From Candidatus Bathyarchaeota archaeon (GTDB taxonomy: Archaea > Thermoproteota > Bathyarchaeia > Bathyarchaeales > Bathyarchaeaceae), in NCBI GenBank assembly GCA_004376295.1, contig SOJZ01000031.1, positions 12,624 through 76,623 of the forward strand: a stretch of 64,000 nucleotides of DNA, read 5' to 3'. The notes under the pieces were generated by a model, which had not been told where the DNA came from, made no database searches, and saw only the letters and a program-made list of their open reading frames with translations. Made by a program: the position numbers and the translations under genes. Shown here piece after piece: positions 22,816 to 61,493 of this stretch (its first letter is position 1; the number at the start of each line of letters is the position of its first letter).

Positions 22816-23022
22816 AGCTACTAACCTTCAAAAGACACATCTAGTATCCATCGAAAATAAAAATGCATGCATGCTCGCATTTTCATCTGATGATCTTGGT
22901 CTTGATTTTGAATGTTGGAGTTGCAATGAGTATGATTGTCTTTTTCCTGATGGAATTGATCACTTTATACTATTCAAGGGCATGGAAAAAACAAGCTACG
23001 TGCGCACGCAGAGACTGTAGAT

Positions 23023-31307: not shown

Positions 31308-31484
31308 TTTGAAATCTTCCAGTAATCGTACGCTTGAGTATGAGTGTTCGCTATTAACACATGATGCCTTTCAAAATATATATTTGCATGCTTGCATCAC
31401 TACTCTACCTACAAAACTACGGAATCTATCAGCGGTAAAGACACCAGAGGAATTTTGAGCTAACCAGCTAACAAGTGTTTATCT

Positions 31485-32772: not shown

Positions 32773-32893
32773 CGCTCAACTGCATGCATTTGTATCACCT
32801 GCAAATTAACCTTTCTGCACGTACATGCAAGCCCTCTCTTCTTTTTTTCTATCGTTAGTTTTTTAGATGCATGCATGGCGCTCAAAGCGTGGC

Positions 32894-33367
32894 TCATACT
32901 TGAAGATAGAATCCCCGAATTATGTCCTGTCTCGAGACGATCCCAACGAGCTTCTTTTCCTTGTCAACAACAGGCAGTCTGTTGATGTTTTTCTTCTTCA
33001 TTATACTTGCCGCTTCAACTATGCCTGTATCCATTGAGACGGTTACGAGCTTTTGAGTCATCACTTCAGCTACACTTTTGCCTCCAATATCCTTTATTGC
33101 ATTCAGCATTTGTTTTAGCTTGTAATCTTTGATACCTAGGCTTATCTGAAGTGGCAGGTAGTGTTCAAGCTTCGTTAATATCGGAGACCGCTCACCTAAG
33201 CGGATAATATCTGACTCGCTGACAAGTCCAATCACTTCTCTTTTCTCGTTAACCACTGGTGCGCCGCTAATATTGTACTTATGAAAGGTCTCACAAACTT
33301 CTCGTATAGTGGTTTCAGGGCTGAACGTTATTACTTCTTTCGTCATTACATCTCTCACTAGAGGCAT
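32894..33367 (-). CDS. CBS-domain pair protein
   Basis: 157 aa; two CBS repeats (VMT.EVIT...; GIVSRQDII). Confidence 0.85.
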   Translation of the reverse strand: MPLVRDVMTKEVITFSPETTIREVCETFHKYNISGAPVVNEKREVIGLVSESDIIRLGERSPILTKLEHYLPLQISLGIKDYKLKQMLNAIKDIGGKSVAEVMTQKLVTVSMDTGIVEAASIMKKKNINRLPVVDKEKKLVGIVSRQDIIRGFYLQV

Positions 33368-33379
33368 GACATCTCACCT

Positions 33380-33850
33380 TTAGCCTTTTGTGATTGCATG
33401 TATAATATCTTCCCTGGCAACTATCCCAACTAGCTTTCCATCCTCATCTACGACTGGCAGATGGTTCACATCTTTCTCACACATTATTTCCGCAACTTTT
33501 TCAATCAAAGTTTCAGGGAGAATAGTGATTGATTTTTTCGTCATAATCTCTTTGATCTTCACCTTTTGAGCTCTCTCGAAATCCCTAAAAAGCTCATCCA
33601 CTTCGATTTTAAGTAACCTATCTGATATTATTGGCGGCAAAGCGGAGGCAAGTGTACCTATCGAACTTTCGAATATTTCACTTATCAGGTTTACCAGATT
33701 TTTCTCACTTACAAACCCAACAACTTTTTCGTCATCCATAACTGGTGCTCCATTGATGTTATTCTTTAGAAACTTTTCTGCAACTAACGCTGCTGTGTCA
33801 TCAGGGTTCAATGTTATTACTTCCTTCGACATTATATCCCTTGCCTTCAA
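33380..33850 (-). CDS. CBS-domain pair protein
   Basis: 156 aa; paralogue of the preceding gene. Confidence 0.85.
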   Translation of the reverse strand: MKARDIMSKEVITLNPDDTAALVAEKFLKNNINGAPVMDDEKVVGFVSEKNLVNLISEIFESSIGTLASALPPIISDRLLKIEVDELFRDFERAQKVKIKEIMTKKSITILPETLIEKVAEIMCEKDVNHLPVVDEDGKLVGIVAREDIIHAITKG

Positions 33851-34078
33851 AAACTCACCTTTTATTCTTCATGCATACCATGTTTAAAAAGTTACGGTAT
33901 CATTTTATGCATGCATAAGCAAATTGAAAAGACGTGGTGTGAAAATAGGCATCGCAACAAGTGTAGCCAAGCCCTATTGGACGGAAGCAGAAACATACCC
34001 AAATGTGACAAACGACAAGTTAGAACTAACAAAAGAACAAGTGAGACTGCTTGATTTGTTCACTGCTGATTAGCTGAG

Positions 34079-36623: not shown

Positions 36624-36638
36624 TCTTCACTATTCTAA

Positions 36639-46489: not shown

Positions 46490-46546
46490 GCGAAACTTAA
46501 TGATGCACGCGCAAAGAATACTTCATGACACATCAAATTTCTTATT

Positions 46547-47521: not shown

Positions 47522-48339
47522 TCTAGATATTTTTCGTAAAATTTCAGGTGCGGGTTTTGAATTTGCGAAACGAACAACTTTCCATTACCATCTTCAGCTA
47601 AGTCGCCAACAAACTTGTAGAACGGCCCTTTAACAATTTCTCCGTTTACCTTGACTTTGGACTTAACGCTATCAACTGTAAACGTAGGAAGAATTGAGGG
47701 TGTGTGGCCGCAAACAACGATTTTTCCTCCACTCATTTGAGCCCCAGCTCGTCCTTCCGAGTTTCCTTGAACAATTATTGTTCCGTTTCTCATGTGGACG
47801 CCCACAAACTGTCCAACGTTTCCATCTATTCTGATTAGCCCGCTTCTCATGAAACATCCAACTTCATTTCCAGCATTTCCCTGTATAATGATTTTTCCTC
47901 CATTCATTCCGCGGGTGCTTCCGCGATAGGCTGCCCCAATGTAATCGCCTGCATCTCCTTTGATTTGAATGATACCTTTTTTCATCATGCATCCGGTCCA
48001 TGAACCTGCGCTACCCGCCACTACTATGGTGCCTCCTTGCATTTCTTCACCGAGGTGCATGCCTGTGTCGCCGTCGATAATTATTTTACCTGTAGACATT
48101 TTAGCGCCGATTCTTCGGGCCTTTCTGACATCTCCCAAAATCCGTATAGTCATTTCTTCTGATTGGTTCTTTGCATTATATTCTATTTTGAAAAGTTGGT
48201 CGAGAGTTCTCTTTTGATTTCCTTCCCAAATTTGTAGCTCAGCTATTTTACTGACTGATTTTTCAACGAAAATGTCAGGTGTGATGCATTGGGCGTCTAG
48301 GGGAGCTTTGAATAAACGTTTCGGATAGAGCGTAATCAT
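47518..48339 (-). CDS. fwdC: Formylmethanofuran dehydrogenase subunit C
   Basis: 273 aa; repeated G-x-G-D/N beta-helix motifs (GDAGDYIGAAYRGS, GNAGNEVGCFM). Confidence 0.9.
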   Translation of the reverse strand: MITLYPKRLFKAPLDAQCITPDIFVEKSVSKIAELQIWEGNQKRTLDQLFKIEYNAKNQSEEMTIRILGDVRKARRIGAKMSTGKIIIDGDTGMHLGEEMQGGTIVVAGSAGSWTGCMMKKGIIQIKGDAGDYIGAAYRGSTRGMNGGKIIIQGNAGNEVGCFMRSGLIRIDGNVGQFVGVHMRNGTIIVQGNSEGRAGAQMSGGKIVVCGHTPSILPTFTVDSVKSKVKVNGEIVKGPFYKFVGDLAEDGNGKLFVSQIQNPHLKFYEKYLE

Positions 48340-48344
48340 GAGTT

Positions 48345-50039
48345 CTAAACCTCAGTCTTAACCGAGATAGGAGCAGAAGCAGCTAAGAAGCTTTCAGGGA
48401 TTGAATAATTTTCGTACTCAACAGTCCAGTATTCTCGAAATCTTCGTTTCATATCATCTGCAACTTCTATCGGCGATGAAAGCTTCGGGTTAACCCAGAA
48501 CGTTTTTCCACGAACCGACTTTACAATTTTTCCATCTTTCACCACGATTTCGCCGTTTTTGATCGTGTACGCAGTGTTTTCGAAAGCTTTGCGAACCGCT
48601 TTGTGTTTTCTAGAAGGATCAACTAGCTCAGGATTTATGTTATATATAGCTATGTCAGCGTCTGCCCCGATTCCAAGATGCCCCTTCTGTGTTAGGCTTA
48701 AGGACTTTGCTTGACCAGCACGTGTGACTATGGCTATTTCATAAAAGCTATATTCTCGATTAATGCTTGGAAGCAGACTTTTGTGTCTCGCTCGTTTGTT
48801 GATTCTTTTCATCGTTTTATCTCTTGCATTTCGGCTCATTAACCACGAAATTATTCGAGGGTAAGTGGTGAATGGGGCAGCGTTTGGGTGATCGGTTGTT
48901 AAGTAGATTTTCCATGGGTCTTCGACTAAGAGACCGAGTTCAAGTCCGATTGACCATTGGATGGAGTGGACGTAGCTTTTGCGTCTGTACCTGAAAGGCA
49001 CGATTCCAGAGCTTGTCTCGGTTTCCACATCGTGGTTAACCCACTTGTTGCTGGTCAGCTGGTAGAGGCCATATTGGAATGGGCCGTCAGCCGTCATCGT
49101 AGTTGTATCGGTGAAAACCACCTGCCCAAGATCAAGCGTTACATGACGGTGGTGATTAACGTATTTGGCGATTTCTTCAGCTCCTGACCTTAGCGTCCGC
49201 CAATTAGATCCTTTGTAGGCGCTAAACTGACAGTGAGTAATATGTATTACTGGCTTATCCTCTAAGGCTAGATTTTCGACGCACTTCATCGTGTCCAAGG
49301 CTGTGGCATAGTTGCCAGCTTTTCCAAGATTGTTGGTGTGCACGTGAATCGTGTGAGGCATATGAAGGAGCTTGTTTACCTTGCATAAGCCACGAATAAT
49401 CTCTTTCGGAGTGATGTTAAAGCGTGGAACAGGGTCGTCAATGTTTCTGACGTTCTGTCCAAAACCCCAAGCTTCTAGCCCACCCGGGTTTACGATCTTT
49501 ATGGCATAACCTTTCGTGGCAACCATTATCCAAGCTACGTGAGCCGCACATTCCTTAATCATTCCGTCTCGAAGGTATTCTAAGACGAACCACCAGTCCC
49601 CCAGTAACGGATAGCTGGCCTTGTCAACCATGGGTGTGTCATCGAGCTCCTCATGAGTGTGCCGAGCCTCAAGTGGAGGCATCGAAGGATTCATGATCGT
49701 TGTATATCCCATTCTTGCATAACGGTAGCCAGTTGTGAATGTTGATGGAACAGAATAACCCACCCCAGACCGAGTAATAGCTGTTTTTGCTTCTACGTCT
49801 CTAAAGTGGTCTTCAGGTCGCAGAAGACGACCTGAATTGACTTCCGCACCAGCGATGTGAGTGTGAATGTCAACTCCACCAGGCATAACAATCATTCCAG
49901 AAGCATCAATCACCTTTGCTTTTTTCTCATCTACTTTTCCAACGATTTTTCCATCGCTGATTGCGAGGTCCATTTTTTCTCCATCTATGCGATTTAGAGG
50001 ATCGTAAACAAACCCGTTCTTAACAATAAGTTGTGTCAT
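48345..50039 (-). CDS. fwdA: Formylmethanofuran dehydrogenase subunit A (amidohydrolase)
   Basis: 564 aa; GGVDIHTHIAG metal-binding motif. Confidence 0.9.
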   Translation of the reverse strand: MTQLIVKNGFVYDPLNRIDGEKMDLAISDGKIVGKVDEKKAKVIDASGMIVMPGGVDIHTHIAGAEVNSGRLLRPEDHFRDVEAKTAITRSGVGYSVPSTFTTGYRYARMGYTTIMNPSMPPLEARHTHEELDDTPMVDKASYPLLGDWWFVLEYLRDGMIKECAAHVAWIMVATKGYAIKIVNPGGLEAWGFGQNVRNIDDPVPRFNITPKEIIRGLCKVNKLLHMPHTIHVHTNNLGKAGNYATALDTMKCVENLALEDKPVIHITHCQFSAYKGSNWRTLRSGAEEIAKYVNHHRHVTLDLGQVVFTDTTTMTADGPFQYGLYQLTSNKWVNHDVETETSSGIVPFRYRRKSYVHSIQWSIGLELGLLVEDPWKIYLTTDHPNAAPFTTYPRIISWLMSRNARDKTMKRINKRARHKSLLPSINREYSFYEIAIVTRAGQAKSLSLTQKGHLGIGADADIAIYNINPELVDPSRKHKAVRKAFENTAYTIKNGEIVVKDGKIVKSVRGKTFWVNPKLSSPIEVADDMKRRFREYWTVEYENYSIPESFLAASAPISVKTEV

Positions 50040-51475
50040 TTTCGTTTGCTCCCTAGTCTGCGAACTTCATGAAGGATTCTTTGCAGAATCTCAACATCAG
50101 AAAGACAGTTGCTCGGCGGTTCTACAATCTTCTTTAGTGGTAAAGGAACGTGATCCATGCGGTAGGCAGTCCCCTCTGTCTCGATCCCTACGAAAGTGGA
50201 TGGAAACACCACATCCGCCATTAACGAAGTAGGAGTTGTTTGTGGGTCAATCACAATAAGAGGATTTTTCACCAAGTTTTGAGCTGCTTTTTTTGGGAAA
50301 TGCGCGACCGGATCTGAAGCGACTACAAGCGCAGCATCCGTTTCATCTCGGCACAATATATCAATCACCGATGTTTCGCCAGGGTTGTACTGTGGATAGC
50401 CCTGAGAGAAGTCAACGGCAAAGGGATATCCGGTTTGCCAAGTGAACACGACGTTTGCTCCAGCCACATTGAAATGCCCTCGCATAGGCATGATCAGAAA
50501 CTTTGTGCGCCGGTTCAGATCGCGAACTAGAGAAATTGCAGCATCAATGTTTCGGAGCTTACCTTCAGTCATGGTTAGCCCTAATCCGAAAAAGATAACT
50601 CCCAATTTGCATCCTATCATAACATCAGCAATTTCGTCAAGCGTTTCAACAGGCACACCAGCAACACGGTCAACGTCAAGTTCTTCGTCTGCAATAAGCA
50701 TGCGAAAGGCTTGCAGAAGCTCGTAGTCTTTGTTGGGTTCAACTTGAAGAAAATAGTCAGCTACATCAGCGGAATGGGTCTTACGGACATCTACGACCAC
50801 CATCTTTCTTTTCTTCTTGAACATAGTGTAGGGGAGTTCGCGACTGATCTCAGGTGTAGCGAACACGTCGCGTCTAAGGACTAGATTGACAGCTCTTCGA
50901 AGTCTCTTTTTGGACAGAATGCCGCCCAATCGTGAGACATATGCTCTCCATGTACTCTTTTGAAATCTACCATTCGAAAATGTTGTGTATCTTTCTACGT
51001 GGCGGGGATGAGAGCTCCAAGGGTTGCATCCCCAATAAACGATGAGGTCCGCTCGATGCCGCAGTTGCCCCAGAGTGCAAGACGAAATGCCAACATCTTG
51101 GATGCTCAGAATAGACGGGCCATGGCAAATGGTAGACGTATTGTCGATAACCCCGCCAACCTCCTCGGCCAGCTCCAGTCCAACGCGAATTGCTTCACAA
51201 CTTGTAGAACTCCAGCCATACAATATGGGGTAAGTAGCATCTATGAGGATCTCTGCACTCTTTCTAATTGCTTCGTCCAAAGAAGCTTCAACTAACTCGC
51301 CGTTCTTTCTTACAAGCGGTTTCACACTTCTGTGATTAGCATAGTCTAAAAACTTGGCTGCACCAATAGCGCATGCGTTTCTAACATCCGTTATAACGTT
51401 GTTTTTTACAATGACTTCGATGTCATCGCAAAAAGAACCGCAGACTGGACAGGTCACTTGGGAAACGACGGGCAC
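50036..51475 (-). CDS. fwdB: Formylmethanofuran dehydrogenase subunit B (molybdopterin/tungstopterin)
   Basis: 479 aa; N-terminal CPVCGSFCDD cluster. The frame is uninterrupted, so this is not a Sec version. Confidence 0.88.
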   Translation of the reverse strand: MPVVSQVTCPVCGSFCDDIEVIVKNNVITDVRNACAIGAAKFLDYANHRSVKPLVRKNGELVEASLDEAIRKSAEILIDATYPILYGWSSTSCEAIRVGLELAEEVGGVIDNTSTICHGPSILSIQDVGISSCTLGQLRHRADLIVYWGCNPWSSHPRHVERYTTFSNGRFQKSTWRAYVSRLGGILSKKRLRRAVNLVLRRDVFATPEISRELPYTMFKKKRKMVVVDVRKTHSADVADYFLQVEPNKDYELLQAFRMLIADEELDVDRVAGVPVETLDEIADVMIGCKLGVIFFGLGLTMTEGKLRNIDAAISLVRDLNRRTKFLIMPMRGHFNVAGANVVFTWQTGYPFAVDFSQGYPQYNPGETSVIDILCRDETDAALVVASDPVAHFPKKAAQNLVKNPLIVIDPQTTPTSLMADVVFPSTFVGIETEGTAYRMDHVPLPLKKIVEPPSNCLSDVEILQRILHEVRRLGSKRK

Positions 51476-51477
51476 TC

Positions 51478-51876
51478 TTATTCCCTCTTGTAATGTTCTT
51501 CAAGCAGATCAAGCATGCTTGATACTCTTTCTTCAAGAGCAGGCTCAATCTCGGCAGGTATCCCCTTTAGTGACGGCATCCCAGTTCCATGGGTTTCTGG
51601 GTTCATGACAAGACTTGCCCAAGGACCATAGGGAATGAAAACAATCTTGGGATGCGGTGCTGTCGGCGACTTGACCAATCTTAGGACTACAGAACCGAAA
51701 TTGGTGATGATTTTGACATTTTCGTTTTCTCTTATTCCAAGTGATTTTATGTCTTCTGGGTCCATGTGACAAATCGCCACGCTCTCTTGGTACTCCTCAG
51801 AGAGCTTGCCGTGTTCCTTTCCCACACCTTGATCGACTGTTCGACCGGTTAGCAGTGAAACTTTTAGTTTAGGCAT
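51478..51876 (-). CDS. fwdD: Formylmethanofuran dehydrogenase subunit D
   Basis: 132 aa; molybdopterin-dinucleotide-binding beta-barrel type; first gene of the tightly packed fwdDBAC-mch operon. Confidence 0.85.
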   Translation of the reverse strand: MPKLKVSLLTGRTVDQGVGKEHGKLSEEYQESVAICHMDPEDIKSLGIRENENVKIITNFGSVVLRLVKSPTAPHPKIVFIPYGPWASLVMNPETHGTGMPSLKGIPAEIEPALEERVSSMLDLLEEHYKRE

Positions 51877-52183
51877 CAGGCTGTCCCAACCGAAAGGATA
51901 CGCTTTAACTCGTTAATCAGCTTGAAACGTTTACTAAGCATGATTTAACCTATTAATGTTATTGATGTTACTTGTCTTTCATAAACTTCCTTTTTTCGAT
52001 TCCATTATACATTCTGATGTTGTTGAACATTGACACGTGCCCTTCTCATCTGGACGTAGGCAGTTGCATGCTTCGCATTCAAACTGGCGCAACTCAATGA
52101 ATCTAACTCACTTTCATACAGCCTATCAATCCTTTTGTTTGTGTCATATATTGAACGGAGGTGGAAACCGTCACACACGCGGT

Positions 52184-52777
52184 CTATACCGGTAGAACGG
52201 CCTCTCCTGAAGCCAGTTTCATCAAGTCTTCTTCTCCCTCAGCATAACCCGAAGCGATTAAGATGTCCCCAGCTTTTATCACAACATAAGGCTTAGGACG
52301 TATCCATTTCCCCCCTCTTCTAATACTTAATACCCACATCCCCGTCTCCTCTGGAATCTGAGCATCCCGCAGAGTTTTGTTTATTAACGAAGATTCTCTA
52401 GCTACTTGCACACGAGTCACCGTTTCCTCAGCCTCCTCAATCACAAGCTTCAAAACAGGATGCGGCTCTAACCCTCTCAAAACAACCCCGGCTATCTCCG
52501 CAGCAGCATCCGCTATCTTTTCCGTAACAACTCCCAACCTTATCAAACCGAGGAAATCCTTGGATTCTTTTCGCTTGAACCCACTCGACAAAACTAAAAG
52601 TTCAAACTCTGTGTGCAACTCATCCACGTGTTCTTCGAGTTCTTGCACTTCTTCCGCCAGCTCATGGCTGTTAAGAAGAAGTGAGGAGTATGCGAGGTCC
52701 ATCATGAGTTCAGAGGTGTCTTTCAGCTCCACGAGTTTATTTACAATTTTTTTGAAGTGTCTTTCAGGTGATGCCAT
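52184..52777 (-). CDS. PhoU-like + TrkA-C domain protein (COG3273-like)
   Basis: 197 aa; paralogue of the upstream gene. N-terminal helical ELMMDLAYSSLL...EEHVDELH, C-terminal TrkA-C. Confidence 0.65.
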   Translation of the reverse strand: MASPERHFKKIVNKLVELKDTSELMMDLAYSSLLLNSHELAEEVQELEEHVDELHTEFELLVLSSGFKRKESKDFLGLIRLGVVTEKIADAAAEIAGVVLRGLEPHPVLKLVIEEAEETVTRVQVARESSLINKTLRDAQIPEETGMWVLSIRRGGKWIRPKPYVVIKAGDILIASGYAEGEEDLMKLASGEAVLPV

Positions 52778-52780
52778 AGT

Positions 52781-53389
52781 TTAATCCTCTAATTTCTGAA
52801 CCGTTCCATCAGCAAGTCCTTTAAATTCCTCAATGCCCAACGGAGCTCCTCGAGCAACAAGAACATCCTCCTTGTGAACTTTTTCATCCTCTTTTGGGTT
52901 TATGATCCACTTCTTTCCTCGACGAATCGCGATGATGTCGACCCCAATCTTTGCGGCCAACTCTAATTCTCCCAATTTTTGCCCAATCAGAATCGAATCG
53001 GGCTTAACTTGGGCGCGGGCTAGTCGTTCCTCAACTTTTTGGAAAGCCTCGCGAACAATGGGATGAATACCGATTTCCTGTAACACTATTGCGGCTATGT
53101 CAGCAGCAGCGTCAGAAATCTTGTTAGCGGCGGCAGCCACCACGGAAACTCCGACAAGAGCCTCGGCGTCTTCTGCGTCTCTAGCAGCCAACATGGCGTT
53201 CATACCTAAAATGTAAGCGAGTGTGTCAACGTGTTCCTCCAGTTCTAAGACATCCTCAGCGAGTTCACGACTATGAAAAAGAGCTGCAGAATAAGCCAAA
53301 TCGATCATTAATTCGGATATGTCTTTCATTTCAACGAGTAAGTCTCGAACTGGTATGGGTTTGTACTCAATTTTTTCTAGGTGCACCAT
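52781..53389 (-). CDS. PhoU-like + TrkA-C domain protein (COG3273-like)
   Basis: 202 aa; ELMIDLAYSAALF...EEHVDTL; tandem paralogue. Confidence 0.65.
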   Translation of the reverse strand: MVHLEKIEYKPIPVRDLLVEMKDISELMIDLAYSAALFHSRELAEDVLELEEHVDTLAYILGMNAMLAARDAEDAEALVGVSVVAAAANKISDAAADIAAIVLQEIGIHPIVREAFQKVEERLARAQVKPDSILIGQKLGELELAAKIGVDIIAIRRGKKWIINPKEDEKVHKEDVLVARGAPLGIEEFKGLADGTVQKLED

Positions 53390-53469
53390 GCTGTCAAAAA
53401 CTCTCCAAGCGTAACATGATCTCGCTACCTAGCATTAAATTGTGCGTATATTAATATTAATGTATTTTA

Positions 53470-53535
53470 AACGGTTACCTTTGCATGCATGCATAAAGGG
53501 TTTAACATAGATCGTGGACATTTTAACATTGTTTC
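53470..53535 (+). repeat. Intergenic repeat carrying an (ATGC)n core (copy 2)
   Basis: aacggttacctttgcatgcatgcataaagggtttaacatagatcgtggacattttaacatt. Homologous to 34079-34135. Confidence 0.7.
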
Positions 53536-53693
53536 GTGTCCAATTTGTGTACAATTCCCAAAATCAGGGGGTTGATAGAGTATCAGAGTGGAACTGGACT
53601 CCTTGCATGGGTGCATAGAACATTTCTCCTCAACTTATTAATGCAACTTCAAGCAAGATAATATGTAGAGTATAAGAGAGAGGGTGAATAGTC

Positions 53694-54503
53694 TTGAATG
53701 AAAAACAGTTTATGGTAGGCGCTTTGATTGGTTTAATGCTATTAGCACTAGCATTGGCTCCGTTGTCTGGTCAGGAAGGTGGTGGATATAACCCTTGGGC
53801 AGATTTGGATGGTGATGGAAACATAGATGCTGACGACTTGTATCTTCTGGCAAATGCGTATGGTACTTCAGGAGAACCCCTCAATCTTCCTATGGCTTTG
53901 GAATATGACAGCGGATGGGTTAACATCATCGACAAACTAGGTCAGCATTTCAACATAACCCACAACCTGAACAGCTCGAACACAATCGTGCAGATTAGAG
54001 GAAAAACAACATTGGCAGGCCCAGCCCATCGGAGACATTTCGATGGAACAGGCTACACAGCGGGATGGAACCAAACATACGGAGGAGCAAACGCCGACCA
54101 TGCTCGTTCCGTGATTCAGACAGCTGATGGAGGATACGCAATAGCAGGCTACACCTACTCGTATGGTGCTGGTGGTTGGGATTCCTGGCTGGTTAAGATT
54201 GACTCTGCTGGTAACATGCAGTGGAACCAAACATACGGAGGAACATTCGATGAAGACACCTGGTCCATGGTTCAGACGAGCGATGGTGGATACGCGTTGG
54301 CTGGCTCCACCCATTCCTATACTGCTGGTGGCTTGGATTTCTGGCTGGTTAAGACGGATGCGTTCGGATTAACAGAGGCTTTCGAGTTGGGATTAGCTAT
54401 TACGGGTCGGACAGCGGACACTTTAGAACTGTATAAGGGCGCAATCGACCCCTACTGGAACTATGTGCGCATCAGGATATGGGTAGCCAAAGAAACCCCA
54501 TAA
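53694..54503 (+). CDS. Secreted protein with dockerin/EF-hand-like DxDxDG motif and tandem ~47-aa beta-propeller-like repeats
   Basis: 269 aa; signal peptide; ADLDGDGNIDADDLYLLANAYG. Repeats WNQTYGG...DGGYA.AG.T.SY.AGG.D.WLVK.D x2. Confidence 0.65.
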   Translation: MNEKQFMVGALIGLMLLALALAPLSGQEGGGYNPWADLDGDGNIDADDLYLLANAYGTSGEPLNLPMALEYDSGWVNIIDKLGQHFNITHNLNSSNTIVQIRGKTTLAGPAHRRHFDGTGYTAGWNQTYGGANADHARSVIQTADGGYAIAGYTYSYGAGGWDSWLVKIDSAGNMQWNQTYGGTFDEDTWSMVQTSDGGYALAGSTHSYTAGGLDFWLVKTDAFGLTEAFELGLAITGRTADTLELYKGAIDPYWNYVRIRIWVAKETP

Positions 54504-54859
54504 CCACAATGCATGCGTGTGCGCGCAAATGATAGGCTTCAGCAGCTTTGGGAAGAGACCTCTTCCAAGAGTATGTAGGTAGAAATCTGATTGCTCACTG
54601 GCAGCCCTATTTCAAAGCCCCTCTTCATTTTCCGGTTGTTACAGCTAACTCTCTTAAAGAATGTTCAAACCTGGAATGCATGCATGACAGCAGAACATTA
54701 ACGATAACTGAAGTATGGTCGGTATACATTCTAAAAGGGCTGGTGTGCTGGACGTAACCCGCCTATAGGGCATTATAGAATTATGCTCTATCTCTCTTAC
54801 TTCGTTTAGTTCTTTCATTTTCTCATCTCGCATGTAGGCTTATAGGTGGTGTTTTATTT

Positions 54860-55060
54860 TTGGGTTTGCTTGTTTTAGGTCTTTTTTTCATGCATGCCTG
54901 TCATTGTGGGTGGGGGAAGGGGTACAAGGGGAAACTGCGCTTCGGGGGGTTTCCCCCTGTTCCTATGGCTTCGGGTGGGTGTGGCAATATGAATAGCCGA
55001 GCGACCAGCTCGGCTGGTATCATGCCCTCAATTCCAAGTAAAAGGTATAGCAAACACTAG
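54860..55060 (+). CDS. Small Gly/Cys-rich peptide with hydrophobic N-terminus (speculative)
   Basis: 66 aa. TTG start preceded by ATAGGTGGTGTTTT, the same string that precedes 55108..55290. Confidence 0.25.
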   Translation: MGLLVLGLFFMHACHCGWGKGYKGKLRFGGFPPVPMASGGCGNMNSRATSSAGIMPSIPSKRYSKH

Positions 55061-55107
55061 AATAGGTGATATCCATATATACGAAACAAAAATAGGTGGT
55101 GTTTTTT

Positions 55108-55290
55108 ATGAAGGAAAAAGATGAGCATAGTCCTGTCGTGCTGAAGTTGGTTTCGAAAGGGAAGAGCGGAGTTCAGATCTCAAGTGTTCCCATGAAGAAG
55201 TTAAAGGCTCTAGAAGAGTGGCATCAGAAGAACTATCATCCCTGCAAATGGCGAATAAGCAAGGATGGGAAAAACCTCTTACTGATGTAA
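55108..55290 (+). CDS. Small hypothetical protein
   Basis: 60 aa from ATG 55108 (MKEKDEHSPVVLK...); AGGTGGTG lies 8 nt upstream. Confidence 0.3.
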   Translation: MKEKDEHSPVVLKLVSKGKSGVQISSVPMKKLKALEEWHQKNYHPCKWRISKDGKNLLLM

Positions 55291-55593
55291 GGCATGCATG
55301 TATGTGATGTGCATTCATCTATTCTTTAACCATTGTGCAACTCTTTTTAGATGTGGAATTGCACTTTGGTCGATTATTGGAACTTCTCTTGCACCCATCT
55401 TTTTGAGGGATTGATATTTAGCCATTTGTGAATAGATAACTGCATGCATGCATACCATTATTCAATCTTATACCTCTAAGTTTGAATGGTAGTTTCATAG
55501 CAAAATACGTATAAATTCAAGGGATTTCTGCATGTATACATGCAAAAAAAAGTAATATATAGCAGACGTAAAGACAATTATGGGGTTAATAGA

Positions 55594-56076
55594 ATGCCAT
55601 TTACAGTTTTTGTAAGTCATAGCACTAAGGATATGGACATAGTCAATGAACTTGCAAAATGGTTGGAGTTAAATGGAGTTGTTGCTCATGTAGCTCAATT
55701 ACAGACAGAAGCAGGAAAACCTTTGGCTGAAACGATTTCAGAGGGACTGGAGTCAAGCAATTGTGTTCTCGCGATTTTAACGAAAGATGGCGCAAGGTCA
55801 AAGTGGGTCAATCAAGAAATTGGATATGCAAAGCGAGCTGGAAAAATGGTTGTGCCAATAGTAGAAGAAGGGGTAAGGGTAAAAGGGTTCCTTGAAAGTT
55901 TGGAATATATCCCTTTCGACAGACGTAATCCGTATGACGCTGTGACTCGAGCTGTGGAATATCTCAGAACGCTTGCTGTCAGAAAGGAGGAAGAAGAAAG
56001 AGCAAGAGCTATCTTTGGAGGATTACTTTTTCTCTTTGGTCTTCTAGCCCTTGCAGCTGTAGCTTCTGGAGAGTGA
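55594..56076 (+). CDS. TIR-domain protein with C-terminal transmembrane anchor
   Basis: Start moved to ATG 55594 (MPFTVFVSHSTKDMDIV...). SKWVNQEIGYA contains the conserved TIR Glu. Tail IFGGLLFLFGLLALAAVASGE. Confidence 0.8.
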   Translation: MPFTVFVSHSTKDMDIVNELAKWLELNGVVAHVAQLQTEAGKPLAETISEGLESSNCVLAILTKDGARSKWVNQEIGYAKRAGKMVVPIVEEGVRVKGFLESLEYIPFDRRNPYDAVTRAVEYLRTLAVRKEEEERARAIFGGLLFLFGLLALAAVASGE

Positions 56077-56182
56077 GATAACGTCTATCAAGTTAGCTTG
56101 GGAGTTCCTGAAAAGAGCTCTGAGGTGCCTAGAGGAAGCTAAAAGGCATTTTGACAATCCAAGCCATGTCGTAGATTATCCT

Positions 56183-56524
56183 TTGTGTATAACCCGAGCT
56201 CATGAATGCGTTGAATTTTCTCTAAAGGCAGCATTGTTATTGGTAGGAAGAAGACTTCCTCACACTCATGACTTAAGTGATGTTCTAACAGGAGCAATTA
56301 AGAAATTTCCAGAGTGGTTCAAAGAAAAGGTTCCTTCGTTTGCAGTTCATTCCAAGGTTATGAACGTCATTAAAGTCTATGCAACGTACGGCTACGAACC
56401 TACGAGTACACCTCCAAAAGAGCTTTTCAAGGAACACTACGCAAATATGTGCGTTAAGAATGCGGAAGACGTTTGGTCTAATTGCCATCGTCTTTACCAT
56501 GAGATACAATCGCTAAAACCGTAA
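56183..56524 (+). CDS. HEPN-domain protein (annotated start truncates the domain)
   Basis: Rx4H motif GRRLPHTHDL. The frame is open from 56063 and encodes a plausible first HEPN helix (ITSIKLAWEFLKRALRCLEEAKRHFD), but has no ATG/GTG/TTG before 56183. Confidence 0.7.
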   Translation: MCITRAHECVEFSLKAALLLVGRRLPHTHDLSDVLTGAIKKFPEWFKEKVPSFAVHSKVMNVIKVYATYGYEPTSTPPKELFKEHYANMCVKNAEDVWSNCHRLYHEIQSLKP

Positions 56525-56573
56525 TGCATGCATGCATTTTATAGACATGTAAAACTATCTTGAGGCTGTATGC

Positions 56574-57185
56574 ATGGATGCATCTCGTTTACATTTTTTA
56601 GATGTCATTCGAGGAGTTGCTGTTTTATGGATGGTTGCTTTTCAAATAGCCGACGCATTCGGATTTTATGACCTTTACGGCTCTTCGTGGTTTCAGTTCG
56701 GGCTTAATTGGGTTCGGCTCTTTTGGTTTGTAAGTGGCTTTTCAGCCGTCCTTATGTATAGAAAATATAGTGTCAAGCGGTTTTGGTCTAAAGTTGCTTA
56801 TCGTTTCACTCTCTTCTCGTGTGTTGGGTTGTTGTTGGCCTTAGTCGTTCCATTTAATATAGACGTTACGCAAATCTGGTTTTATGAAGCGGTTTCAAGT
56901 ATAGGTTTGAATCTTATCTTCGTATCTGTCCTCGTATATGTTAATCGACTGTCCGTGTATGTAGCTTCTTTATTCGTGCTGCTGACGGCTCAAATAACCA
57001 TAGCTTTAAACGTTATGTTTAACCCTCTCGAAGTTTTAGCCTTCATGATTCTCGGCTCGATTCTCGCAACGAAAGACTTCAACTTAAACATTAAAAACAG
57101 ATTTTTAGAGTTTCTTGGTCGTCACGGTTTACTCCTTTACGTCTTGCATTTTCTGATTATAGCATGTAAGAGGTTTTTCTCATGA
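56574..57185 (+). CDS. Membrane protein, DUF1624/acyltransferase-3-like (short)
   Basis: 203 aa; LHFLDVIRGVAVLWMV N-terminal motif, about 6 TM. Confidence 0.5.
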   Translation: MDASRLHFLDVIRGVAVLWMVAFQIADAFGFYDLYGSSWFQFGLNWVRLFWFVSGFSAVLMYRKYSVKRFWSKVAYRFTLFSCVGLLLALVVPFNIDVTQIWFYEAVSSIGLNLIFVSVLVYVNRLSVYVASLFVLLTAQITIALNVMFNPLEVLAFMILGSILATKDFNLNIKNRFLEFLGRHGLLLYVLHFLIIACKRFFS

Positions 57186-57238
57186 ACACAAACACAGCTA
57201 TTAGAACAAGTTCAACGATGCATGCATGTGTGCAATCT

Positions 57239-58492
57239 TCATTTGGTTTTCGTACGTTCTTTTAGCTTCTTGAATTTCTTCTTGCTTCCTTCCAAAGTTT
57301 CAAAGTGCTCTTCTACCAATGCCTTCAAGGGTGCACGCATGCGGTCGGTAAGACCGTCGATGATGAAGTCTAAGGTTCTTTTGAGGTTTTCTGGGGCATC
57401 ATCGCTGTTCACAAGCTCTACTAAAGGCTGTAATTTAGCCATTTTTCCCTCCAAGACGTTAATCTCTTTGTCTCTCTCTTTCAATTGCTCTCTCAATTCC
57501 TCTATAACCTCTTCTGTTTCTGTCGGTGTAGCGGTTTCAAGCCTTAAGAATGGCATAGCCTTCTCAGCATACAGTTTGCGGTGGAACTCTGGGTCTTTAG
57601 GACGATAGTGCTCGTCTACGCCTTCTCTGACTATATGCCCCATCCAGAATTGCACGTATTCAAATCCTGCAGGGGTGGCGTATTTTCTGAAGAACTTGCG
57701 TAGATTGTAGAGTCTAACCTCGGCAGGTTTGTGATACTGACGTTTCTTAATTTTCATGACTTTGTGTCTCTCAAGTTTGTGGATGATTAAACGGAAAGTC
57801 TTACTGACGCTTTTAGGAGAGAAACATCTGTTTTCGCTGTGGTGCGTGAAAAGGTAATCGCTAGGTTTTATATGCGGTCTAGTTTTGAGATAGAGTTTAA
57901 GGAATCTTACGGTTTCAGGCCCTGCAAAAGTGAAGTAGTCGCGGTATTGCCCTTTAGCTATCTCTGCTGGCACGTTGACCTTTAAAGGGATAATGTCTGC
58001 TTCAAAATCTTTTTGAATATGCTCGTAACGGAGGCTATTAAGCGTGCATGGTCTTAGTCCGCTTTGAGCCATCATACAGAAATACGCTTTGTCTCTAACT
58101 TTGGCGTGAGCTAAGATTTGTGCTACTTCTTCTTTAGTGATGTCGCGGTTGTGGTATACGATTCGAAGCTTTCCTACAGGCACGTAGCCTAATGGCAAAT
58201 CATTATGCTTGAAGAAACTTCTTATCGCCCCTATGTAACTGGCAATTGACGCTGAAGTACGTTCTCCATTATCCAAATACGATATGAAAGCTCGAAGATA
58301 CCGTGCATACTTTCTTCGGAATTCACGGTCAGTCATAGCATCGTATTCTTCTAGAATCTGTTGGGGGGTTTTTTCTATAAAATCGCTAAAAATCTGTAAT
58401 AGTCTTCGGTAATTTTTCTCGGTGTGTACGCTTTTAGAATGACTATATTGCACGCTGGATATCCAACTATCTACCACGTTGAATTTATCCAT
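57239..58492 (-). mobile_element. Tyrosine recombinase / integrase with C-terminal coiled-coil extension
   Basis: 417 aa; catalytic-type residues in GLRPCTL, YNLRKFFRKY, WMGH, DEHYRP. No tRNA seen nearby. Confidence 0.82.
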
Positions 58493-58687
58493 CTTTTTCC
58501 ACGTACTTTTTTATGCTAGAATAGGCATTGGGCCTATATAAAGGTAACCTATAAGGTTATCTTTTAATATTAATGTGGGCTGTTATTAATTTTGCAAGAG
58601 AATCAAGGTGGTTTATTCAGAAGTTAAGTATCGGCTACTAGACATAGTGCGATAAGAAGTACAAAGAAGACGAATATACTTTCCAAG

Positions 58688-59761
58688 CTACACAATATTC
58701 CAGAATTCTTTAGGAGTCACTTTAGCCTTTCTTGCTGAGGCTATGTTGTATGGACAAACCTTTATGCATGTTGAACAATCTATGCCGTTTTGGCACCAGT
58801 AAAGGTAGCATCGTTCGACATCAACATACCATTTCAACGCTCCTGGATTGTTGGATCTGCATGTTGCTTGGAAGTTTGGTTCATTATCCATAGAAATCGC
58901 AACCGCCTTGCAATGTTGAGCGCACAACTTGCATTTTTCACAGAATTCTTTTACGCCGAATTTTATGGGTTTGTCAGGGCCCAACGGAAGATCTGTGAAA
59001 ATCTTGCAGAATCTTACTCTTGGGCCGTATTGAGGTGTTATCAATAGGCCATTGCGACCTAGTTGTCCAAGTCCAGCGTCAATTGCAAGTGGAATGCTCA
59101 AGGCAGTGTCATTTCCGCATTGAATTGCTTCATATCCGAGATTTCGGATAAACTCGCCCATGCATGCAAGTATAAAAGCCATTTTTGAATACCCCACTCC
59201 AGTAGCAGCCGCAGCAGGAGCAGCTGGAGAAGTTGCAATCCCATCCGCATCCATTTCAACCGCCATAACAATAACATTTTCGAATTTCTCTGGAATATTA
59301 ACATCTGCGTATAGCCAGTCTCTATTTAGCTTGCAGATTCCAACCAGCGATGCACCGAAAAGCTTTGCTGCTCGCTTGGTAAAAGTGCTCATCTTACATG
59401 GGTCATCAACTTCATATTTCGTTTTTGTCCAATCAATTCCAATAGTAGCTGCAGGGGTTCCATACAATTTGATTTTCTTCCAGGAAAAACCACCTTCAAA
59501 AGCGTCATGCACTATCCAAGAGGCATAAGCTAACGCAAAGTCAATTCTTGAATAACCCGGTTTTCCATTTGCAACGGTGTCAAGCACTTTTTCATCATAC
59601 ATTCGCTTGTAGCCTTTCCATGATGAATCCCACATTACCCTATCAAAAATTGTGTTTTTACGGTCGAAGCGGCGAAGCTCAAATCGATCGATAACGTAGG
59701 GCGGTTTTTCAACCCTTTTCACTTTAACTCTGGGAGCTTTGCTTGTTCGATTTGAATTCAT
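58688..59761 (-). CDS. Reductive-dehalogenase/QueG-like Fe-S protein
   Basis: 357 aa; two ferredoxin-type motifs CEKCKLCAQHC and CSTCIKVCPYN; no TAT signal seen. Confidence 0.6.
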   Translation of the reverse strand: MNSNRTSKAPRVKVKRVEKPPYVIDRFELRRFDRKNTIFDRVMWDSSWKGYKRMYDEKVLDTVANGKPGYSRIDFALAYASWIVHDAFEGGFSWKKIKLYGTPAATIGIDWTKTKYEVDDPCKMSTFTKRAAKLFGASLVGICKLNRDWLYADVNIPEKFENVIVMAVEMDADGIATSPAAPAAAATGVGYSKMAFILACMGEFIRNLGYEAIQCGNDTALSIPLAIDAGLGQLGRNGLLITPQYGPRVRFCKIFTDLPLGPDKPIKFGVKEFCEKCKLCAQHCKAVAISMDNEPNFQATCRSNNPGALKWYVDVERCYLYWCQNGIDCSTCIKVCPYNIASARKAKVTPKEFWNIV

Positions 59762-59978
59762 AATCTAGCACCTAAAGACATAACGGAATAGAGGATTTAA
59801 GTTGATTTTCCTTCTTTTCTCGGTTCTGTTAACTTTTCTATCATGAAAGCTTTTATCGTAAAGTTTCAAAAACCTTCTACTGCTCCTACACAAGTCTCAA
59901 CTTTGACATAACAGTTAAAAAGATTAGAACTATTGATATTCAAAACCTCTTGAAACAAAAAAAAGGGAATGTGCAGGT

Positions 59979-60914
59979 ATGGGATATTGGAAAGGCATGC
60001 GTTACTATCAGGATGGCGACGCATTCGTAGAAGTTGATGATACCTTCGCCGAGATGTTTTCGATGTGGGCTGGAAGAATTCTGATAACGGCTCACAACAA
60101 GAAATGGGCGTTAACAGCAGCGGGCATGGCAACAGGATTCGCTGCTTCCATAATCATGTCTCCAGCAGAAGCCGGAATAGAAGACATCGTTCCATCCAAT
60201 AAAACTCCTGATGGACGAGTTGGAGCGGTGATCCAAATTTACCACAGGACACGGAGGGAATTGAAGACCCAGATGATCTTAAGGATAAGTCAATGTATCA
60301 TGACATGTCCTACGACCGCAGCCTTCGACGCACTACCCAAAGCTAAGAGAAGATTGAAAGTGGGACGAAGCCTTCGCCTTTTCGGTGACGGATTTCAAAA
60401 AAAAGATGTTGTCGCAGGACGTGATGTTTGGCGCATCCCAGTCATGGAGGGAGAATTCGTAGTGGAAGATCGCTTCGGCGTTATGAAGGCCGTTGCAGGG
60501 GGGAACTTTCTGATTCTAGCGAAAAGTCGTGATTCCTGTCTTAAAGCGGCGGAGGAAGGGGTAAAGGCTATCAACCAGAGAGCTGAAGGAGTCATATTAC
60601 CTTTCCCTGGAGGCATATGCGGATCTGGATCTAAATCAGGCTCAATGAAATACAAACTTAGAGCATCGACGAATCACCCGCTCTGTCCGGGACTGAAGAA
60701 AATTGTGCCTGACTCGCAGGTTCCAGACAACGTGAACAGCGTTTACGAAATCGTCATAAACGGTTTGAATTCCAATTTTGTTAAGAAAGCGATGGCTGAA
60801 GGGATAAAAGCAGCAGTGAAGGTTCCAGGAGTGGTTAAAATCTCGGCTGGTAACTATGGAGGAAAGCTCGGTCCGTTCCGAGCTTATCTTAACGAAGTAT
60901 TACAACTAGCATAG
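59979..60914 (+). CDS. ftr: Formylmethanofuran--tetrahydromethanopterin N-formyltransferase
   Basis: 311 aa; VDDTFAEMFSMWAGRILITA...ATGFAASIIMSPAEAGIE matches the Ftr N-terminus pattern. Start may be an internal Met. Confidence 0.86.
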   Translation: MGYWKGMRYYQDGDAFVEVDDTFAEMFSMWAGRILITAHNKKWALTAAGMATGFAASIIMSPAEAGIEDIVPSNKTPDGRVGAVIQIYHRTRRELKTQMILRISQCIMTCPTTAAFDALPKAKRRLKVGRSLRLFGDGFQKKDVVAGRDVWRIPVMEGEFVVEDRFGVMKAVAGGNFLILAKSRDSCLKAAEEGVKAINQRAEGVILPFPGGICGSGSKSGSMKYKLRASTNHPLCPGLKKIVPDSQVPDNVNSVYEIVINGLNSNFVKKAMAEGIKAAVKVPGVVKISAGNYGGKLGPFRAYLNEVLQLA

Positions 60915-60926
60915 CAGGTACACAAC

Positions 60927-61493
60927 ATGCGATTAATAGTGGCCATAACCGGAGCCAGTGGAGTCATCTATGGCAAACGCATGTTGGAAGTGTTACGGAG
61001 CAAAAACGTTGAAACTCACCTTATAATTAGCAAGGCCGGGGAAAAAGTAATTGAACACGAACTTGACACCTCAAAGAGTAACCTCAAAAGACTAGCTAAC
61101 TACGTTTATGACATGGATGATTGGACCGCTCCAATCGTGAGCGGATCATTCAAAACGGATGGAATGGTTATCATTCCTTGTAGCATGAAAACGCTGGCAG
61201 GAATAGCTCATGGATACTCAGACAACATCATTTTAAGAGCCGCAGATGTTACGTTAAAAGAAAAACGAAAACTGATCATCGTCCCTCGTGAAACCCCTTT
61301 GAGTGCTATTCATTTGCGCAACATGCTAGAACTCGCGGAGGAAAACGTCACAATTGTTCCAGCAATGCCCGCATACTATCACGAACCTAAGGGCATAGAC
61401 GATCTTGTGGACTTTGTAGTTGGAAAAGTTTTGGGTCTCTTGGGAATAAAACACACTCTTACTAGAGGTTGGTCAAATAGAACACCTAAGTGA
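60927..61493 (+). CDS. ubiX: Flavin prenyltransferase UbiX
   Basis: 188 aa; MRLIVAITGASGVIYG..., PCSMKTLAGIAHG. Confidence 0.9.
   Translation: MRLIVAITGASGVIYGKRMLEVLRSKNVETHLIISKAGEKVIEHELDTSKSNLKRLANYVYDMDDWTAPIVSGSFKTDGMVIIPCSMKTLAGIAHGYSDNIILRAADVTLKEKRKLIIVPRETPLSAIHLRNMLELAEENVTIVPAMPAYYHEPKGIDDLVDFVVGKVLGLLGIKHTLTRGWSNRTPK

Follow-up and report, generated by a model that had tools for sequence, protein, structure and literature searches.

Cryptic integrated elements and integrative plasmids that carry an intact, non-split tyrosine integrase have been surveyed in the Thaumarchaeota, where the inserts range from 2.6 to 98 kb (PMC6563490). The integrase is the sole conserved gene of these elements, their cargo is mixed and includes defence genes, and their boundaries were validated against empty sites (PMC6563490). 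The island described here lies in a stretch of 64,000 nucleotides (the window) of contig SOJZ01000031.1 from a Candidatus Bathyarchaeota archaeon (assembly GCA_004376295.1, positions 12,624 to 76,623 of the forward strand). It fits the class of cryptic integrated elements, being a precise insert with att repeats and a terminal intact integrase with the R..K..xxR..H..Y signature. Like the surveyed elements it is a small integrase-bearing insert with att direct repeats, a mixed cargo, relatives that carry a rolling-circle initiator and boundaries defined by empty sites (PMC6563490). Unlike them it resides in a member of the Bathyarchaeia, its target is an AT-rich intergenic core containing a palindrome rather than a tRNA gene, its rep gene is cut down to a 130 nt stub and its interior is punctuated by short (ATGC)n tracts (PMC6563490). 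It is probable, though well short of certain, that two processes meet at this locus: an integrase-mobilised element, and tract-delimited, self-contained transcription units that recombine at the tracts, probably by short homology.

The block from 53464 to 58563 is one integrated element that was inserted as a single 5.1 kb piece. Its limits, its integrase and the adjoining genes are listed below (no strand is given for sites, repeats and tracts).

53464..58563: integrated element, a 5,100 bp insert that is absent from L002, L273 and L274 by blastn
53451..53463: attL, the left copy of the 13 bp direct repeat TTAATATTAATGT; homology with the empty sites stops at 53463/53464
58564..58576: attR, the right copy of TTAATATTAATGT, read directly and aligned
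57239..58492, minus strand: intact tyrosine integrase of 417 amino acids (aa), with the Pfam Phage_integrase and SAM-like N domains and a match to phrog_1 integrase
58688-59761: rdhA-family gene, then ftr and ubiX (NCBIfam RDH, 196 bits against a cut-off of 160)

The comparison sequences, L-numbered loci and contigs, are all short-read metagenome assemblies, and the closest relatives of the Ftr protein encoded in the window come from Bathyarchaeota/Bathyarchaeia contigs with 95-96% identity. In L002 (about 93% nucleotide identity) window positions 46533-53464 correspond to 1665-8599 and positions 58564-61477 to 8586-11499; these two blastn matches are contiguous with an overlap of 14 nt, and the sequence across the empty site reads ...GTATATTAATATTAATGTAAATCG.... 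L273 also contains an empty site, with an identity of 98% in the left flank and 100% in the right flank, L274 is similar, and in both the rdhA-family gene lies 186 nt from a PhoU/TrkA-C gene. Overall the flanks in these three relatives are 92.5-100% identical to the window. Both TTAATATTAATGT copies around the insert are perfect 13 bp repeats and the empty sites hold a single copy, located in the intergenic space between the PhoU/TrkA-C gene and the rdhA-family gene. As there are no tRNA genes in the window the insertion is not tRNA-targeting, and an Rfam scan of the whole window at the gathering threshold and of the island at an E-value threshold returned nothing credible.

The insertion locus is a hotspot, since other integrase elements occupy the same place in sister genomes. 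L001 carries an unrelated 414 aa integrase and an OLD-family nuclease abutting the same rdhA-family gene, and in L003 part of an integrase of a third type lies ahead of ftr. L271 shares the att site, and its integrase gene is 95% identical at the nucleotide level up to window position 57477; beyond that point the C-terminal tail differs, as does the cargo. An integrated element at a recombination hotspot is what the original prediction had proposed from the window alone, and the empty sites and att duplication for which it had suggested searching in relatives were both found; the block is not conserved throughout the relatives and the recombinase is not the chromosomal XerA, the two results that it had named as contrary to its proposal. 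It had also placed the return of the housekeeping genes ftr and ubiX after 58.7 kb, and both do follow there, although the rdhA-family gene comes first.

Across 23 aligned homologues the integrase residues R147, K180, R265, H286 and Y296 do not vary, and more than 636 homologues were found in sediment metagenomes. On the archaeal XerA equivalog model NF040815 the protein scores 58.5 bits, which is below the cut-off of 220, and its profile reaches the XerA structures 5HXY and 4A8E at 4e-11 with the N-terminal half only. NCBIfam gives weak XerA/XerC/XerD-type matches and no integron-integrase model at E<=0.001, and Pfam finds the generic Phage_integrase domain only, with no IntI-specific domain. 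Unlike the conserved chromosomal XerA, the gene is absent from L002, L273 and L274. On these comparisons the recombinase is classed as neither XerA nor an integron integrase, but as a member of a large Bathyarchaeia family. Two short repeats close to the element's ends may be connected with its activity.

58540..58564: inverted repeat AAAGGTAACC-TAT-AAGGTTATCTTT, which overlaps the TATA-like box of the integrase gene and abuts attR; a putative integrase binding site or operator
53473..53482, plus strand: copy of GGTTACCTTT at the left end, 9 nt inside attL and before the first tract (sequence read)

An AGGTAAC-N5-7-GTTACCTTTATATA pattern, fused to a TTTATATA box, is present upstream of most members of the integrase family. 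It is plausible that repeats of the GGTAACC/GGTTACC type, and not (ATGC)n, are the candidate protein-binding repeats of this family. Among 80 integrase-family loci only a subset has tracts, and most have none. A same-family integrase of 370 aa (66% identical) is encoded in L268, from the genome of L001, at 10001-11141; it stands by itself with almost no cargo, a beta-CASP gene on one side and a geranylgeranyl reductase gene on the other, and TGCATATGTGTGCGCATG is located 10 nt past its stop codon. In L083 an apparent partial tRNA gene, possibly tRNA-Lys, was recognised by eye at 1-140, directly upstream of the integrase promoter repeat. If that reading is correct, some members of the family target tRNA genes, unlike the element in the window.

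The island also retains a trace of its presumed ancestry.

54898..55030, plus strand: remnant of a rolling-circle rep gene, comprising the GC-rich upstream hairpin region and approximately the first 10 codons (matches in L155 and L157)

This segment is 100% identical to L155 over 61 nt and 80% identical to L157 over 133 nt, and it diverges after ten codons. In L157 and L083 the equivalent sequence runs into a 283 aa Rep_1 protein, a rolling-circle initiator carried by the relatives L083, L155 and L157 (37.4 bits, cut-off 33.2), and the HUH Rep of these relatives shows a weak IS91-like match. No intact HUH Rep gene was found in the window element, in which the upstream region and about ten codons remain. 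The segment had also been considered as a structured noncoding RNA with a compensatory hairpin, a candidate that was dropped as it corresponds to the rep upstream region and 5' end. Judged from these homologies, the element appears to derive from a plasmid-like family with an integrase and a rolling-circle Rep, and to have since lost rep. The gene-less interval of micro-ORFs (open reading frames) thus holds the debris of a lost replication module. PHROGs identified no virion or packaging genes in the element, and there is accordingly no evidence for a provirus.

The cargo consists of five genes and a leader.

53484..53565, plus strand: unit leader of 82 nt, homologous to 34086-34167 (77% over 82 nt, starting at the tract; 89% over the first 47 nt)
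53694..54503, plus strand: secreted repeat protein of 269 aa with a signal peptide, a dockerin-like DxDxDG segment and two 156 nt internal repeats; no Pfam family
55096..55290, plus strand: 64 aa ORF, AbrB-like by eye; no family match
55540..56076, plus strand: TIR-domain protein with a C-terminal transmembrane (TM) helix, ThsB-like (Pfam TIR_2 4e-19, ThsB_TIR 3e-8; PADLOC ThsB models down to 1e-9)
56063..56524, plus strand: HEPN-domain ORF that overlaps the end of the TIR gene (Pfam HEPN 4.8e-14, residues 13-140 of the frame opened at 56063)
56574..57185, plus strand: DUF1624/HGSNAT_cat membrane protein of 203 aa (Pfam), full length for its small family

Every credible gene between 53.47 and 57.24 kb is encoded on the plus strand and the 417 aa recombinase is on the minus strand, convergent with them, in agreement with the original prediction. 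Its further statements that the interval 54504-55540 combines six tracts with micro-ORFs only, and that the left boundary repeat has a homologue in the other accessory region of the window, likewise hold: no ORF in that interval is recognised by Pfam, and the homologous pair is 53484-53565 and 34086-34167. A direct-repeat partner for the 34086 repeat was not found. Exact-protein look-ups with the 64 aa ORF and with a 94 aa version of the HEPN protein gave no match. The first canonical start codon of the HEPN frame is a TTG at 56183, yet the Pfam match begins about 28 codons earlier, and the frame overlaps the TIR-TM stop codon by 14 nt; a non-canonical start, a frameshift fusion with the TIR-TM protein or early decay are possible explanations. 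Truncation of the DUF1624 gene at the tract at 57218 was ruled out, all seven homologues being 184-213 aa long.

The original prediction had further described the cargo as single-gene defence cassettes. This does not stand, as only TIR and HEPN of the five genes are of defence type and they share one unit. Neither Pfam nor PADLOC detects a ThsA-like gene (SIR2 or Macro/SLOG) in the element, which leaves the Thoeris pair incomplete, and no complete known defence system is present: the ThsB-like TIR protein is without ThsA and the HEPN protein without MNT.

The feature that sets the island apart is its series of alternating purine-pyrimidine (RY) tracts.

53482..53494: (ATGC)n tract, 13 nt, perfect, the first feature inside the element
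54509..54516: (ATGC)2 tract, 8 nt, 5 nt past a stop codon; the alternating run continues to 54527
54676..54686: (ATGC)n tract, 11 nt, perfect
54889..54897: (ATGC)n tract, 9 nt, perfect
55292..55300: (ATGC)n tract, 9 nt, perfect, 1 nt past the stop of the 64 aa ORF
55441..55453: (ATGC)n tract, 13 nt, perfect
55529..55544: alternating palindrome TGCATGTATACATGCA, not strict (ATGC)n (sequence read)
56524..56537: (ATGC)n tract, 14 nt, perfect, overlapping the HEPN stop codon
56570-56583: ATGCATG|GATGCAT, two out-of-register 7-mers (sequence read)
57218..57228: (ATGC)n tract, 11 nt, between convergent stops (DUF1624 stop 32 nt away, integrase stop 10 nt away)

Ten (ATGC)n tracts had been predicted here, and eight of them are perfect over 8-14 nt; that at 55529 is the palindrome TGCATGTATACATGCA and that placed at 56568 consists of the out-of-register 7-mers at 56570. 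With ten tracts in 3.7 kb beside the integrase this is the densest array in the window, which has 23 tracts of at least 8 nt, nearly all at 18.8-37.4 kb and 53.4-57.2 kb. The sequence ATGCATGC has 47 matches in the window on both strands, against 1.73 expected (none of 100 shuffles reached 47), and GCATGC has 45 against 12.3. Many tracts run on into other alternating sequence, for example ATGCATGCGTGTGCGCGCA; alternating runs of at least 12 nt number 28 in the window against 6.5 expected. The excess of alternating tracts is specific to the lineage, with 59 against 9.3 expected; a general survey gives an enrichment of Z-DNA motifs in archaea of only about 1.7-fold (bioRxiv 10.64898/2025.12.30.697008), compared with 6- to 13-fold in the lineage of the window. 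Tracts are abundant in the close relatives L001-L003 and at or below chance in 77 other Bathyarchaeia loci. The 14-mer (ATGC)3.5 has only 107 matches in IMG/VR, and as these are scattered and single the tract is not a viral signature. There are no conserved flanks around the tracts, and a literature search for the tract sequence yielded nothing beyond primers and plant RY elements. TTTWRCATT, a motif present close to several junctions, was discarded because it is not enriched (6 against 6.35 expected). Besides the double tract at 56570-56583 there is another at L281 2593-2617 (CATGCATG|GCATGCATGCATGCATG), and both look like two tract-ended pieces joined end to end. A second type of tetranucleotide tract, (CCAA)n within TTAAATTTTAATCCAACCAACC..., is intergenic at 24295-24369 and 25067-25102, and its complement occurs just past the integrase stop codon in L097.

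The bearing of the tracts on gene content is seen most clearly outside the island, in the other accessory region, for which junction contigs from several samples were found by exact-protein look-ups of two of its genes.

32867..33916, minus strand: tract-bounded CBS-pair unit of 1,050 bp, outside the island (at least 99% identity, at least four contexts)
22863..22874: tract at which an HD-gene unit meets a completely different context in L284 (homology stops at 22874)

In L279, L280, L282 and L283 homology of at least 99% begins precisely at 32867, where ATGCATGCATG has its outer edge, and three different sequences lie outside this position: a helix-turn-helix gene, HEPN_AbiV and another sequence. 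At its other end the homology of the CBS unit stops at 33916 in L281, the outer edge of ATGCATGCAT, and at 33908 in L280, in which the tract is lost. HEPN_AbiV, the alternative neighbour of the CBS unit, is itself a 770 bp unit between two tracts. In L286 the HD unit adjoins an inverted copy of window 36380-36980 with the break at the tract at 36380, homology with L279 is lost at 36099 within the tract 36097-36109, and L002 and L001 diverge at the tract L002 12460-12470. The tract-bounded CBS-pair, HEPN_AbiV and HD units are therefore exchangeable between strains, as the direct comparison of contigs demonstrates.

A census at an identity of at least 97% gave ten junction coordinates on the window, four of which match three tracts, and two further tract junctions were found at 92-96% identity; since the tracts make up about 0.5% of the window, the chance of such a coincidence is by our own arithmetic about 1e-7 or less. 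Breakpoints are exact to the nucleotide at a tract edge in 5 of about 12 junctions. Across all loci breakpoints are enriched approximately 3-fold at alternating runs. At each edge of the 18.8-38.4 kb segment there are breaks in contigs of other samples (L275, L276 and L273), which is consistent with strain variability there. Junctions away from tracts include the att sites of the island, a 16 bp palindrome TTAATCAATTGATTAA at 22159, a 97 bp indel at 35139 and a deletion in L287, which is without the 8.5 kb stretch of window 23337-31826 and is joined between two copies of TCATGAA; this last event implies that short-homology rearrangement occurs in the population. The stretch missing from L287 encodes a NERD nuclease, a 771 aa HATPase_c_3 protein and a 501 aa metallophosphatase-TPR protein with PADLOC candidate-system matches. 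The perfect palindrome TTAATCAATTGATTAA forms, with AAGGTAACC 17 nt away (approximately 22158-22200), the non-tract end of the HD unit, and from its resemblance to the island att core and the integrase-type repeat the site may be an old att site. Neither a second integrase nor a rep remnant was found in the 17-39 kb region, and the ORF at 21261-22070 was ruled out as an integrase (hhalign probability 0.8%).

It could be objected that contigs were mis-joined at short repeats and the exchange of units is only apparent, given that every comparison sequence is a short-read metagenome contig and that several (L158, L119, L281) end at or near tracts. This is improbable in the extreme, as the same HEPN_AbiV-CBS junction recurs in three different samples (L279, L282, L283) and the arrangement shared by the window and L278 is repeated in an independent 38.8 kb contig. 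Moreover, tracts of 8-14 nt are shorter than the usual k-mers of metagenome assemblers.

Which activity joins the units is a separate matter. An enzyme dedicated to the tracts and distinct from the integrase might cut and rejoin at (ATGC)n and mobilise the units as defined fragments, for instance a restriction-type nuclease/methylase pair for CATG, GCATGC or ATGCAT, or else a nuclease of the HUH or structure-specific kind that acts on the palindrome or on its Z-DNA or cruciform state. In three independent contexts the break falls precisely on the outer edge of a tract whose length is unchanged, out-of-register joints between tracts exist, type II restriction palindromes are nested in the tract, related elements encode the HUH Rep with its IS91-like match, and the excess of alternating tracts is lineage-specific. 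No candidate was identified in the window, however, no search aimed at a DNA methyltransferase having been made; the tracts are without conserved flanks, microhomology junctions away from tracts coexist with those at tracts, and the data do not separate a site-specific cut from a crossover within the repeat. Such an enzyme is unlikely, though the exact outer-edge breaks and the out-of-register joints keep it under consideration. Short-repeat recombination is favoured on account of the microhomology events in the same population and the lack of conserved flanks.

The tracts are also placed systematically with respect to genes. In 179 kb of tract-rich sequence 58 of the 70 tracts are intergenic, the intergenic share of the DNA being 23%; the distance to a stop codon is at most 10 nt for 13 of them (2.3 by chance) and at most 35 nt for 21 (6.0 expected, at most 13 in 500 permutations), with just one in the 35 nt upstream of a start codon against 6.9 expected. 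These statistics depend on gene calls made with crude longest-ORF heuristics. In the lineage of the window an alternating run of at least 8 nt is found in 41% of free 3' flanks, 18% of 5' flanks and 10% of mid-gene positions, compared with 17% of the 3' flanks of other Bathyarchaeia. Many members of the integrase family have a tract 10-35 nt past the stop codon, and an alternating run follows the stop in 22 of 59 integrase homologues (11% expected), its sequence varying from (GC)n to (ATGC)n. Orthologous tracts read TGCATGCATGC in L271, TGCATGCGCGCGCA in L272 and TGCATATGTGTGCGCATG in L268; all are fully alternating, and when aligned by eye from a shared TGCAT start they differ mostly by transitions. 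Tracts also occur among housekeeping-type genes in L268 and L284. The tracts are hence a lineage-wide class of alternating purine-pyrimidine palindromes that mark gene 3' ends; they are not specific to the element and do not form its att sites.

Several functions are conceivable for such a position: the tracts could signal boundaries or termination, serve as methylation sites, or be supercoil-sensitive RY or Z-DNA-prone elements. A role as hairpin terminators is unsupported, because their RNA folding is weak (-0.8 to -6.2 kcal/mol) and no better than that of shuffles and because they show no significant tendency to replace or accompany T-runs. Intergenic tracts of at least 8 nt are absent from the core parts of the window (1-18 kb and 38.4-53.4 kb) despite many gene ends there, and the tract is thus not a universal terminator. 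A contribution to transcript 3'-end formation or to DNA topology may nevertheless exist. It is very unlikely that the tracts are purely signals of expression or topology (3'-end punctuation, supercoil-sensitive RY boxes, Z-DNA-prone insulators) and that the breakpoints merely reflect the survival of whole-unit exchanges. Their strong placement past stops and avoidance of the 35 nt before starts, their occurrence in half of the free 3' flanks as against a T5 run in only 20%, the retention of alternation while the sequence drifts and the tracts beside housekeeping genes would all agree with this. Selection for intact units, by contrast, predicts breakpoints anywhere in a spacer and not to the nucleotide at the tract edge in 5 of about 12 junctions, with tracts occupying such a small part of the window; in addition the core operons of the window end without tracts and the RNA folding is weak.

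It is proposed that the element's own tyrosine integrase would have inserted the block by site-specific recombination at the 13 bp intergenic core TTAATATTAATGT, and that the element, having lost rep, would now carry the secreted repeat protein, the TIR-TM and HEPN pair and the DUF1624 membrane protein. From one tract to the next, a unit would comprise a leader of 36-200 nt, one gene or a pair of genes and a 0-45 nt tail, so that with tracts typically 0-35 nt past stop codons each tract-to-tract interval would constitute a self-contained transcription unit. Because the same perfect palindrome recurs dozens of times, its copies may serve as crossover points by which whole units are swapped, inverted or lost between strains, probably through short-homology recombination and not a dedicated enzyme. 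The same exchange may shape the cargo of the island and explain its gene-less mini-units. One internal boundary of the island does lie at a tract, where homology to L155/L157 starts about 1-4 nt to the right of 54889-54897.

A number of observations weigh against this combination of integrase and tract exchange. No tract marks the right end of the rep remnant (near 55030), and the divergence between the window and L271 at 57477 lies inside the integrase gene, away from any tract. No other arrangement of the island's own units was found, the TIR, DUF1624 and secreted-protein genes occurring only in the same order, and exchange of units is therefore not demonstrable inside the island, of which only co-linear copies were retrieved. 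Out-of-register double tracts (56570; L281 2593-2617) fit end-joining better than an in-register homologous crossover, and the weak RNA folding and tract-free core regions also count on this side. Finally, the relatives are all metagenome assemblies, the statistics rest on the crude longest-ORF calls and the independent junctions are few. The proposal that tracts delimit cassettes is accordingly borne out by the exchangeable units of the other accessory region, which are found in different contexts, and not by the units of the island, among which no exchange was seen.

An integron-like platform would be a different account, in which the integrase of the island, or its family acting in trans, recombines (ATGC)n as IntI does attC and the array is a store of cassettes. 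The tracts delimit units truly exchanged between strains, the densest array adjoins the integrase, a tract lies 10-35 nt past the stop of many family integrases and another 19 nt inside attL, beside the GGTTACCTTT repeat, and the gene-less mini-units look like empty cassettes. However, the block was inserted in one piece at a different core sequence, the integrase shows no IntI signature or match and is convergent with the units instead of divergent, and the units of the other region lie on both strands with leaders of their own. Furthermore, sequence conservation does not extend into the flanks of the tracts, some tract-rich regions contain no integrase (window 18.8-37.4 kb; L284), most integrase-family loci are free of tracts and those past integrase stops range from (GC)n to (ATGC)n. 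This account is consequently most unlikely. The original prediction had inferred an element or hotspot that accumulates cassettes; construction of the block in place, with the integrase adding cassettes at (ATGC)n, is not supported, in view of the movement of the whole block through an unrelated att core, the GGTTACC-type of the conserved binding-type repeats of the family and the tracts around housekeeping genes and on contigs without an integrase. Its description of the array as resembling an integron in concept but not in site structure or orientation was apt, there being no attC structure and a convergent integrase.

A bolder reading can be offered only tentatively: the lineage might use (ATGC)n and other alternating palindromes as the recombination sites of an undescribed gene-cassette system of promoter-bearing units, each with a tract directly past its stop codon. 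Either a structure-specific mechanism or an enzyme devoted to the task would cut such units out, invert them and insert them at other tracts; candidates for the enzyme would be an HUH protein, a nuclease of restriction-like type or the integrase family working in trans, and integrase-borne elements such as the island would then be vehicles that load units and carry them between genomes. Taken alone, the integrated element adds an ordinary entry to the archaeal mobilome, and it provides a clean att site and an integration hotspot for uncultured Bathyarchaeia. Of greater interest is the tetranucleotide palindrome, which looks trivial yet marks the ends of genes and matches to the nucleotide the positions at which near-identical strains differ in gene content. 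If a dedicated process is responsible, a second means of packaging genes into exchangeable cassettes, independent of integrons, would exist in archaea; if the recombination is incidental and by short homology, a lineage-specific intergenic repeat still turns the region into a modular, fast-shuffling gene store. In either case the tract is a sequence signature for variable regions and unit boundaries in metagenome-assembled genomes of the group, and a substrate for biochemistry.

Other parts of the neighbourhood vary as well. Downstream of ubiX (window 61.5-64 kb; L001 8698-10080; L002 11616-12469) the content differs in all three close genomes; the GC content of the window segment is low (0.34) and the variant segment of L002 is a single gene between two tracts. 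A 294 aa radical-SAM gene (window 45256-46532) is present in the window, L273 and L274 and missing from L002, making it a second single-gene indel, and the alternating tract ATGCACGCGCA lies 10 nt past its stop codon. Two 44 nt inverted repeats (39560-39603 and 42140-42183, 82% complementary) bracket a 2.5 kb segment that encodes a B12-binding radical-SAM protein and a subunit of fumarate hydratase, and relatives of the repeat arm of about 60 nt are found at L001 15722-15781 and L002 20806-20868. Six copies of a 10 nt periodic motif (TATCTTTTCC-like) are located at 39402-39489, upstream of the radical-SAM gene at 39671.

Among described systems, integrons of bacteria and archaea resemble the arrangement in having a tyrosine recombinase beside short units, a palindromic site near the stop codon, some gene-less units and contexts that vary by strain (PMC9668308). 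They differ in the recombinase, which here has no IntI-specific domain or family match, and in their sites, as attC are imperfect hairpins of 50-150 nt with extrahelical bases (PMC9668308) and the sites of the window are perfect tetranucleotide palindromes of 8-17 nt with weak RNA folding. Integron cassettes are also mostly promoterless, co-oriented and 5' of intI, whereas here there are leaders of 36-200 nt, units on both strands at 18.8-37.4 kb and a convergent integrase, and the array itself moved as one element via an unrelated att site.

The REP/BIME elements of bacteria are 20-40 nt long, have a conserved head, form a stable hairpin and are associated with RAYT transposases. The tracts are similar in being short palindromes past stops and between convergent genes that act as rearrangement hotspots, but the repeat measures only 8-14 nt, its folding is weak and no gene resembling RAYT was seen. 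Integration hotspots and defence islands offer a further parallel, with one position that carries differing integrase-borne TIR/HEPN or OLD-family islands and is empty in other strains; the island is unlike a defence island in that only two of its five cargo genes are of defence type and no complete known system is present. A counterpart of the tract itself is the HIP1 sequence (GCGATCGC) of cyanobacteria, likewise a lineage-specific and hugely over-represented palindrome with nested restriction/methylation motifs that is linked to recombination and gene transfer (PMC5861425, PMC4390886, bioRxiv 10.1101/2024.09.10.611283). A HIP-like over-representation of one palindrome is indeed found, ATGCATGC being in excess in the window and in L001-L003 and at chance level in other Bathyarchaeia loci. 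HIP1, however, is frequent inside genes and quasi-periodic, while the tracts described here are approximately 83% intergenic, lie near stop codons, consist of tetranucleotide repeats of variable length and stand at the junctions of unit exchange.

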